Under the pieces are notes generated by a model. That model was given only the letters and a program-made list of their open reading frames with translations. It did not search any database and was not told the DNA's origin. Shown piece by piece: positions 3,428 through 55,096 of a DNA stretch of 64,000 nt (positions within the stretch are counted from its first letter, which is position 1; every line of letters starts with the position of its first letter). The DNA comes from Escherichia coli. Its GTDB lineage: Bacteria; Pseudomonadota; Gammaproteobacteria; Enterobacterales; Enterobacteriaceae. The stretch is taken from assembly GCF_030384885.1 (NCBI RefSeq), contig NZ_CP128613.1; one strand, given 5' to 3'. The position numbers were made by a program, and so were the translations under genes.

Positions 3428-3689
3428 ATTTATTAACCTTCCAATACCATCCTGAAAAGTATGAACGCGTAAGGGATAACGCGCGAAAAAGTTTACATCT
3501 GTCAGAGATTCTTAATATTGATGCGGTGAATAGATTAATACACTATTACAACAGAAAATAACCAGCTGATCACACTAATGATGGAAAATATGATGGTGTT
3601 AAATGTTGTATTGGCTGGGGATTTTGATTGCGTACGCAGATCGTAGGCCAGATAAGGCGTATACGCTGCATCAGGTAACAAGGCGCGCC

Positions 3690-4569: not shown

Positions 4570-4905
4570 ATGATAAGCACCGTCGCATTATTTTGGGCTT
4601 TATGTGTCGTTTGCATTGTTAACATGGCGCGCTATTTCTCATCACTACGCGCGTTGTTAGTGGTACTGCGTAACTGCGATCCATTGCTCTATCAATATGT
4701 TGATGGAGGGGGCTTTTTTACCTCACATGGCCAACCCAACAAACAGGTGCGTCTCGTTTGGTATATCTATGCCCAACGTTATCGCGATCATCACGATGAT
4801 GAGTTTATTCGCCGCTGTGAGCGGGTGCGTCGGCAGTTTATTCTGACCAGCGCATTGTGTGGTCTGGTGGTGGTCAGTCTGATTGCATTGATGATTTGGC
4901 ATTAA
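4570..4905 (+). CDS. uspB: universal stress protein B (small membrane protein)
   Basis: 111-aa [26 protein letters not shown]..., divergent from uspA as in K-12. Confidence 0.9.
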
Positions 4906-4926
4906 GCACTTCAGCAAAAATAACGC

Positions 4927-4957
4927 ATAAAAAAAGCGGGCCAGCAAACTGACCCGC
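4927..4957 (-). terminator. candidate rho-independent terminator for pitA, located beyond the REP element
   Basis: GCGGG-n12-CCCGC hairpin followed on the minus strand by a run of 7 T. Confidence 0.5.
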
Positions 4958-4983
4958 TCGAGACTGATTACAAACGCAAAATT

Positions 4984-5082
4984 GCCTGATGCGCTACGCT
5001 TATCAGGCCTACATAATCTCTGCAATCTATTGAATTTGCATGTTTTTGTAGGCTGGATAAGGCGTTCACGCCGCATCCGGCA
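4984..5082. repeat. REP/BIME-type extragenic palindromic repeats (two inverted units)
   Basis: GCCTGATGCGCTACGCTTATCAGGCCTAC and GTAGGCTGGATAAGGCGTTCACGCCGCATCCGGCA units between convergent uspB and pitA. Confidence 0.75.
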
Positions 5083-5113
5083 TGAACAAAGCGCACTATG
5101 TCAACAATCTGAA

Positions 5114-5140
5114 GCGGGCCAACTGACCCGCTCGTTTTGG
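5114..5140 (+). terminator. candidate plus-strand hairpin, possibly a weak uspB terminator
   Basis: GCGGG-ccaactga-CCCGC followed by TCGTTTTGG; same stem sequence as the 4927-4957 hairpin. Confidence 0.35.
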
Positions 5141-5149
5141 TGCGTGCGA

Positions 5150-44200: not shown

Positions 44201-44304
44201 GGTGGATCAGGCTAGCGGACCGATCGCGCTCAATTTTGCGGCTTGCAACCGGTTTGTAGGACGGATAAAACGTTCAAGCTGCATCTGGCGATACGGTGCG
44301 CAAT

Positions 44305-44391
44305 GCCTGATGCGACGCTGTCGCGTCTTATCATGCCTACGAGTTCAATGCCCTGTGTAGGCCAGATAAGGCGTTTACGCCGCATCCGGCA
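44305..44391. repeat. REP/BIME-type extragenic palindromic repeats
   Basis: GCCTGATGCGACG...CATGCCTAC and GTAGGCCAGATAAGGCGTTTACGCCGCATCCGGCA units. Confidence 0.75.
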
Positions 44392-54896: not shown

Positions 54897-54956
54897 TCAT
54901 TAATCGGCAACTTTGGGTTGCCGCCAAATTGCTAATATCGAGTACGCATGCTTCAT

Positions 54957-55055
<99 letters not shown>

Positions 55056-55096
55056 AATTTCTCGTTGGTCATCACTTTTGAAATCAAACTTGACGA

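Follow-up and report, generated by a model that had tools for sequence, protein, structure and literature searches.

The convergent genes uspB (+) and pitA (-) of Escherichia coli are separated by a 244-bp spacer (4906-5149) in which the hairpin AAGCGGGCCAG..CTGACCCGCTCG occurs twice, with a pair of REP sequences between the two copies. This arrangement raises two questions, namely which gene is terminated at which hairpin and how one spacer came to hold the same hairpin twice. The spread of REP/BIME elements has been a question since the 1980s, their insertion mechanism is still called not established (bioRxiv 10.64898/2026.03.23.713779; PMC3116915), and the duplication of a hairpin may be a clue to how REPs move. 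Here we analyzed the spacer within a 64,000-nt stretch of E. coli DNA (assembly GCF_030384885.1, contig NZ_CP128613.1), referred to as the window, whose numbering is used throughout unless K-12 is named. Very probably a BIME-1/RIP element inserted into the one bidirectional terminator of uspB and pitA and the whole hairpin was duplicated, leaving the canonical terminators crossed and the two 3′ UTRs complementary over at most ~210 nt.

Results and Discussion

The spacer and its two hairpins

The DNA is ordinary E. coli sequence at the uspB–pitA locus and its features are collected in Table 1. REP features are absent from the annotation of this stretch in the RefSeq K-12 record.

Table 1: Features of the uspB–pitA region, with positions in the window.
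Feature	Position	Strand	Basis or remark
uspB, CDS of 111 aa	4570-4905	+	ORF; uspB in the annotation of matching E. coli records
A7 tract, the T7/U7 of the putative pitA-direction terminator	4929-4935	-	sequence, terminator scan, K-12 3′ ends
Hairpin copy 1, AAGCGGGCCAGCAAACTGACCCGCTCG; left copy of the target duplication	4934-4960		terminator scan, repeat search, RNA folding
BIME-1/RIP element, ~152 nt	4960-5112		missing from short-allele genomes; ~91% identical copies elsewhere
Outer left arm	4960-4982		part of the element
Z-type REP	4983-5012		part of the element
Linker match to Rfam RF02751 ES036 (CssrF)	5005-5045	-	42 bits versus a gathering score of 37.6
L linker, 35 nt	5013-5047		part of the element
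Y REP	5048-5082		part of the element
Outer right arm	5083-5112		part of the element
Hairpin copy 2, AAGCGGGCCAACTGACCCGCTCG; right copy of the target duplication	5112-5134		terminator scan, repeat search, RNA folding
T4 tract (TTTT) of the putative uspB-direction terminator	5135-5138	+	sequence, terminator scan, K-12 3′ end
pitA, CDS of 499 aa	5150-6649	-	ORF; pitA in the annotation of matching records

Copy 2 lacks four loop bases and is otherwise identical to copy 1. The terminator scan made a minus-strand call at copy 1, with 11 pairs followed by T7, and a plus-strand call at copy 2, with 6 pairs followed by CGTTTTGG. In RNA folding copy 1 reached -19.6 kcal/mol (z -4.2) on the minus strand versus -13.9 on the plus strand, and it is stronger as pitA RNA because a G-U pair forms there in place of the C/A mismatch of the plus strand; copy 2 folded weakly on the plus strand in its context (-12.4 kcal/mol, z -1.6). 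By their sequence both sites, each a hairpin with a U tract, are putative intrinsic (Rho-independent) terminators. A preliminary description of this DNA had recognized the GCGGG...CCCGC hairpin on both sides of the REP pair, had assigned the copy beside uspB with its minus-strand T7 to pitA, and had regarded the plus-strand T tract at the pitA-side copy as the weaker one. These assignments agree with the repeat positions and the scan, with a K-12 3′ end inside the T7 tract (see below) and with the T4 tract, six pairs and low folding energy of copy 2.

The element and the two spacer alleles

Among 5,426 complete E. coli genomes, ~5,399 of which carry the uspB–pitA locus, the spacer has two alleles, a long one (1,941/5,426, 36%) and a short one (64%). 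The short spacer measures 70 bp and contains one hairpin, GCATAAAAAAAGCGGGCCAGTAAACTGACCCGCTCGTTTTGG, in the order A7-hairpin-T4, which is a classic bidirectional terminator. Aligned to it the long allele shows an insertion of 173-174 bp directly after the hairpin, which ends in a second hairpin copy, and the two alleles differ by exactly the 152-nt element plus one copy of the hairpin.

BIME-1 elements consist of one Y and one Z-type REP with a long L linker, in which an IHF site is often present (PMC3333891; PMC1187871), and the inserted element has this arrangement of REPs and linker. Its REPs are inverted with their CTAC and GTAG ends pointing to the linker, and it is a single, extragenic unit that is polymorphic among the genomes. 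The linker is conserved among element copies and includes at 5023-5035 a site resembling the IHF consensus with one mismatch, ATTCAATAGATTG, a type of match that is in marginal excess in the window (61 versus a shuffle mean of 48.4). As the linker itself is repeated, we read its match to ES036/CssrF as membership of the repeat and not as a gene. Rfam matches to L20_leader and naRNA4 were below their gathering scores and were set aside. Together the two outer arms, (G)AGAcTGATGACAAACGC and GCGCACTTTGTCAACAATCTGA, form an imperfect inverted repeat, and copies at entD-fepA and yjbR-uvrA are ~91% identical over the full length of the element, including the 23 nt to the left and the 30 nt to the right of the REPs.

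The element itself shows no difference from BIME-1/RIP/RIB as described before (Gilson, Bachellier, Hofnung; Oppenheim 1993; Boccard and Prentki 1993), with which it shares the inverted Y and Z-type REPs, the conserved long linker with a possible IHF-type site, a size of ~140-150 bp, a single copy per locus, the location at 3′ ends of genes and a strain-variable presence (PMC3333891; PMC1187871). Two features go beyond BIME-1 as described in the accessible literature: the mobile unit as defined by filled and empty sites includes the outer inverted arms of 23-30 nt, and a duplicated terminator hairpin of the host encloses it on both sides.

Hairpin duplication at other loci

The duplication recurs elsewhere, and at 5/5 pairs of filled and empty loci the repeat is single in the empty site, as is characteristic of a target-site duplication. 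At yjbR-uvrA, filled in 89/5,426 genomes and with the empty site AAAAGGCCGCTCAGAAAGCGGCCTTAACG, a 174-bp insertion comes with a 20-nt duplication, and at srmB-yfiE, filled in 2,524 genomes, the duplication is 24 nt long. One hairpin in the empty site corresponds to hairpin-element-hairpin in the filled site both at artJ-rlmC, filled in 3,191 genomes, and at metE-ysgA, filled only in a metagenome contig and empty in E. coli. The yddM-fdnI spacer contains two tandem BIME-1 copies interleaved with three copies of the terminator hairpin AAATGGCGCCTTTTACAGCGCCATTT, which looks like a tandem duplication of a unit of element plus hairpin, and at gldA-yijF diverged hairpin copies flank the element on both sides. 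A flanking direct repeat above shuffles was absent at three of the eight loci inspected by hand (entD-fepA, panM-livJ and yajD-tsx).

A metagenome scan for the BIME-1 core yielded 120 loci representing 45 distinct sites. Significant flanking direct repeats, each reached by at most 3/200 shuffles, were found at 14 of these sites, and at 12 of the 14 (12/45 overall) GC-rich stem-loops abut the outer arms at the ends of the element; on the left they begin 22-25 nt from the Z REP and on the right 28-30 nt from the Y REP. The two other significant sites were excluded, one having a repeat that is not a hairpin and one a boxC-type-like repeat directly beside the REPs. For a control that keeps terminator-like flanks, left flanks were aligned to the right flanks of other sites: an alignment score of at least 15 was reached by 11/45 same-site flank pairs (24%) versus 9/1,980 cross-site pairs (0.45%). 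At about two thirds of the 45 sites a flanking repeat was not detectable, and these, like the three loci inspected by hand, may represent older, decayed insertions or a second insertion mode. Even at clear sites one hairpin copy is frequently degenerate. The length of the duplication is not fixed and follows the hairpin, being ~18-27 nt and once 36 nt.

Relative to the hairpin of the empty site, both copies are often altered, with substitutions in the stem, changes in the loop or a 4-nt loop deletion; in the metE-ysgA copies compensatory T-to-C and A-to-G changes keep the stem. Such changes may stem from errors made during fill-in, from a relaxation of selection or from selection that disfavors perfect repeats. 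The window itself contains a second BIME-1-like element in the panM-livJ spacer (54941-55074, minus strand), which is 81% identical to the uspB–pitA copy and has a hairpin, CGGCAACCCAAAGTTGCCG, on one side only. This region is also polymorphic, since 3,747/5,426 genomes cover at least 80% of it. Relative to replication, the orientation of the element probably differs among three loci considered, and we assert no orientation bias.

The duplication pattern itself is well supported. A broader statement, which we offer as a tentative but real possibility, is that BIME-1/RIP elements integrate specifically at the hairpins of intrinsic terminators, duplicate the whole stem-loop (~18-27 nt) and systematically leave, in place of a single bidirectional terminator, a crossed pair that yields long antisense 3′ UTRs.

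A model for the duplication

The duplication appears to be defined by structure and not by a fixed stagger, and we favor structure-directed breakage because in every case the duplicated segment covers the stem-loop and is matched in length to the hairpin. In the preferred model the hairpin would be extruded, alone or as a cruciform, and each strand would receive a nick at the base of its own stem-loop, on the 3′ side. The staggered nicks would leave 3′ overhangs of hairpin length, between which the element would be joined, and the gaps would then be filled in. HUH tyrosine transposases perform chemistry of this kind, with cuts at the foot of a hairpin, and one may speculate that a REP-associated transposase is involved in the hairpin duplication by BIME-1.

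Known transposition systems resemble this picture in part. For IS200/IS605 relatives and the REP-associated transposase the known biochemistry predicts no target duplication (PMC2817692; PMC3333891), and the reported cleavage sites of TnpA-REP lie beside the REPs (PMC3333891). In contrast, a duplication of 18-27 nt is present here and the insertion boundaries lie 23-30 nt beyond each REP, so that the insertions do not conform to single-strand transposition of the IS200/IS605 type (RAYT). REPINs, which are mobilized by RAYT (REP-associated tyrosine transposase), are similar in being non-autonomous REP doublets that form a long hairpin, are rarely mobile and are vertically inherited (PMC3116915). 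With MITEs the element shares the small non-coding format, imperfect terminal inverted repeats and a direct duplication lacking at empty sites, but DDE transposases typically duplicate 2-14 bp, whereas its duplication is far longer, is variable and coincides with a stem-loop. Likewise, classical duplications have a length defined by the transposase, whereas here the length varies.

The main alternative to staggered cleavage is template switching at a stalled fork, in which replication halts at the terminator hairpin, uses a BIME-1 located elsewhere as template, resumes upstream of the hairpin and copies it again. A duplication that varies in length and matches the size of the hairpin would follow from this as well, and the substitutions or loop changes often seen in both hairpin copies relative to the empty site would suit it, as would the palindromic nature of both hairpin and element, either of which could stall a fork. 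We nevertheless consider template switching unlikely, as the boundaries of the element are nearly constant at independent sites, with (G)AGAcTGATGAC at the left end and CAACAATCTGA at the right end, which is unexpected from switching driven by microhomology, and microhomology is not evident at the junctions.

While the mechanism is a proposal, the insertion and the duplication at uspB–pitA are shown by the alleles themselves. The ancestral spacer had a single bidirectional intrinsic terminator of the form A7-hairpin-T4. On insertion of the ~152-nt BIME-1/RIP the hairpin was duplicated in the manner of a target site, one copy at each end of the element, with the A tract remaining by the left copy and the T tract by the right copy. 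With the tracts in these places, the sole combination of hairpin and U tract for each gene lies beyond the element and beside the other gene. Terminators that cross thus follow automatically from a target duplication of hairpin length.

RNA 3′ ends at the two hairpins

The evidence for 3′ ends consists solely of published maps of strain K-12, which by alignment carries the same long allele as the window. In K-12 coordinates pitA is on the plus strand, the spacer extends over 3639142-3639384, copy 2 over 3639158-3639179 and copy 1 over 3639331-3639356. The TRS study (PMC10687069, supplementary files 4/5) gives a plus-strand (pitA) terminus at 3639356-3639366 with its peak at 3639360/62 and a score of 0.98-1.0, a position that corresponds to the U7 tract past copy 1. 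A table of ‘overlapping bidirectional terminators’ (Table 16 of bioRxiv 10.64898/2026.03.23.713779, reused from its reference 47) lists 3639328-3639360 (uspB:pitA) and 3639152-3639183 (pitA:uspB), both for stationary phase. From its column names and the description in bioRxiv 10.1101/2022.10.23.513370 we infer that the reused table is that of the SEnd-seq study by Ju et al. 2019.

Reading every overlap of this table as the span from a minus-strand end to a plus-strand end, pitA RNA ends in K-12 at 3639183, just past copy 2 and without a U tract, and at 3639360 in U7 (window ~5108 and ~4930), and uspB RNA ends at 3639328, just past copy 1 and without a U tract, and at 3639152 after UUUU (window ~4962 and ~5139). 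The overlaps across the individual hairpins amount to 33 and 32 nt, and by these K-12 literature data both hairpins belong to the bidirectional terminators as defined by SEnd-seq. Copy 1 thus combines on the minus strand 11 pairs, U7 and a K-12 end at 3639360/62, and copy 2 combines on the plus strand six pairs, UUUU and the K-12 end at 3639152 from one dataset, as is typical of intrinsic terminators. The distal ends, 3639360 (plus) and 3639152 (minus), delimit an overlap of 209 nt that halts 11 and 25 nt before the two stop codons and leaves the coding regions untouched.

The preliminary description had proposed terminators that cross and ~200 bp of overlapping antisense 3′ UTRs. The length is borne out by the 209 nt between the distal K-12 ends, and crossing finds support in the pitA end at T7 (two datasets) and the uspB end at T4 (one dataset, stationary phase); the K-12 maps do not place the ends directly past the stop codons without read-through. 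What has to be qualified is the completeness of the crossing: distal ends are present on both strands, but 3′ ends also lie at the proximal hairpin of each gene, so crossing is either restricted to some of the RNA, or trimming has produced the proximal ends. The detection of the table entries in stationary phase only is in keeping with uspB as a stationary-phase gene. Entries for uspB or pitA are absent from the TERMITe Term-seq supplement, and the SEnd-seq table holds no entry for srmB-yfiE, yddM-fdnI, gldA-yijF or yajD-tsx.

The most probable reading of both kinds of ends is that some RNA ends at the first hairpin, which lacks a U tract, be it that polymerase pauses and terminates there or that exonucleases trim the RNA back, and that the remaining RNA passes through the element to end at the distal canonical terminator. 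Distal termination on both strands then produces complementary 3′ UTRs of up to ~210 nt.

Improbable, in our opinion, is that each gene stops at its own proximal hairpin and the distal ends belong to separate small transcripts of the spacer, for example an RNA like ES036, so that long antisense 3′ UTRs would not exist. Although both proximal hairpins are listed as 3′-end sites on the relevant strands, neither has a U tract in the relevant direction; and although the linker matches a candidate sRNA family of Rfam above its gathering score, this match is the repeated linker itself and speaks for a repeat, not for a gene. Moreover, promoter prediction across 4906-5149 gave no sigma-70-like site, the SEnd-seq-derived table attributes the ends to uspB and pitA, and the pitA-strand terminus at T7 has a near-maximal TRS score. 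We therefore keep to partial crossing, or crossing with trimmed proximal ends, as the preferred reading.

The ancestral state of the spacer

To these data from E. coli we can add 77 uspB–pitA loci of other bacterial species, with one genome per species. Their spacers mostly measure 50-75 bp, and a single hairpin with A-tract, GCGGGCCAG..CTGACCCGC and T-tract is kept in Escherichia, Citrobacter, Klebsiella, Enterobacter and Salmonella; the identical long allele occurs outside E. coli in one Escherichia sp. only. As the single hairpin and the short spacer are conserved across genera, the short state is ancestral and the allele of the window is a derived insertion.

The reverse polarity, with an ancestral long allele from which the short one arose by deletion (slippage or recombination) between the direct repeats of 23-27 nt, so that the duplication would be no footprint of insertion, is very improbable. 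A palindromic element between direct repeats is indeed prone to deletion, and within E. coli some short alleles could be secondary revertants. The abstract of Bachellier et al. 1997 is said to speak of ‘excision of a whole BIME-1’. As far as the work of Bachellier et al. 1997 is relayed in PMC1187871, BIME-1 is present or absent among isolates, as deletion would allow. However, all lineages outside E. coli that we examined are single-hairpin without such an element, apart from the one Escherichia sp. mentioned, and the insertions at yjbR-uvrA and metE-ysgA occur in just 1.6% and in 0 of the E. coli genomes in the collection, respectively. Even with deletions, two hairpins from a one-hairpin ancestor still require a duplication at insertion.

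That the two hairpins are unrelated terminators, alike by chance or convergence, has a negligible probability: intrinsic terminators in general consist of a GC stem plus A and T tracts, but here 23/23 aligned positions match, including the non-stem CTCG, the direct-repeat score is reached by 0/500 shuffles, such similarity is almost never reached in the cross-site flank comparisons, and the comparison of filled and empty sites, with exactly one copy in the short allele, rules independent terminators out.

Other insertions are found in the same spacer. Citrobacter amalonaticus, C. sedlakii and Salmonella enterica subsp. diarizonae and arizonae have independent insertions of a REP or a REP pair, which lie on the pitA side of the conserved hairpin and have not duplicated it. 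The uspB–pitA spacer is a recurrent landing site for REPs, and hairpin duplication seems to be specific to the BIME-1-type element. In Raoultella, Enterobacter and other species the spacer is ~830-1,000 bp long, which suggests an extra gene or element.

Relation to previous work and significance

Several parts of this picture are already published, among them how BIME-1 is built, that it has an IHF site, that it lies at the 3′ ends of genes and that its presence varies with the strain (PMC3333891; PMC1187871). It is likewise published that REPs are enriched between convergent genes and act both as terminators and as stabilizers, and the 3′ ends at both uspB–pitA hairpins are in public tables (bioRxiv 10.64898/2026.03.23.713779; PMC10687069). 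An account of the duplication of a terminator hairpin or of the resulting crossed terminators was absent from the accessible REP/BIME/REPIN literature, and older BIME papers might hold one. The overlapping bidirectional terminators of SEnd-seq (Ju et al. 2019; collision model in bioRxiv 10.1101/2022.10.23.513370) are similar in that a hairpin between convergent genes gives a ~30-nt overlap of the 3′ ends of the two strands. At uspB–pitA, in contrast, the ancestral terminator has been split into two copies 174 bp apart with one U tract each, and the crossed canonical halves give a potential overlap of ~209 nt instead of ~30 nt.

Crossing terminators at uspB–pitA alone are a modest finding, and the value lies in the genome-wide, recurrent target duplication of hairpin length by a REP doublet. 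If true, it is a sequence footprint of REP/BIME transposition that a model without duplication, as for IS200/IS605, does not predict. Recent polymorphic insertions with intact footprints provide testable constraints, namely a unit of 152 nt, a terminator hairpin as target and duplication of the whole hairpin. Each insertion moves the two halves of a bidirectional terminator apart and gives both genes longer 3′ UTRs that are complementary to each other; 3′ ends are rewired in this way while coding and promoter sequences stay untouched. With both alleles common at uspB–pitA (36% long, 64% short), natural comparisons of nearly isogenic type are available.

Further observations on REPs and palindromes

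IS110-family elements have been reported to target REPs. In agreement with this, E. coli O112ab:H8 Res13-Lact-EA06-22 carries IS621 (IS110 family) inside the Z-type REP of the uspB–pitA spacer at about window position 5009, with the junction lying between ...GGCCATAACAGTAT and CTACATAATCTC. Using the element as query, other REP-like matches, single or paired REPs, were found in the window at 3643-3686, 44253-44391 and 63201-63231. A terminator-like site called on the plus strand at 4687-4708, which consists of the 9-pair palindrome CTCTATCAATATGTTGATGGAG and then GGGGCTTTTT, falls inside the reading frame of uspB and includes a perfect match to the IHF consensus, TATCAATATGTTG, at 4690-4702.
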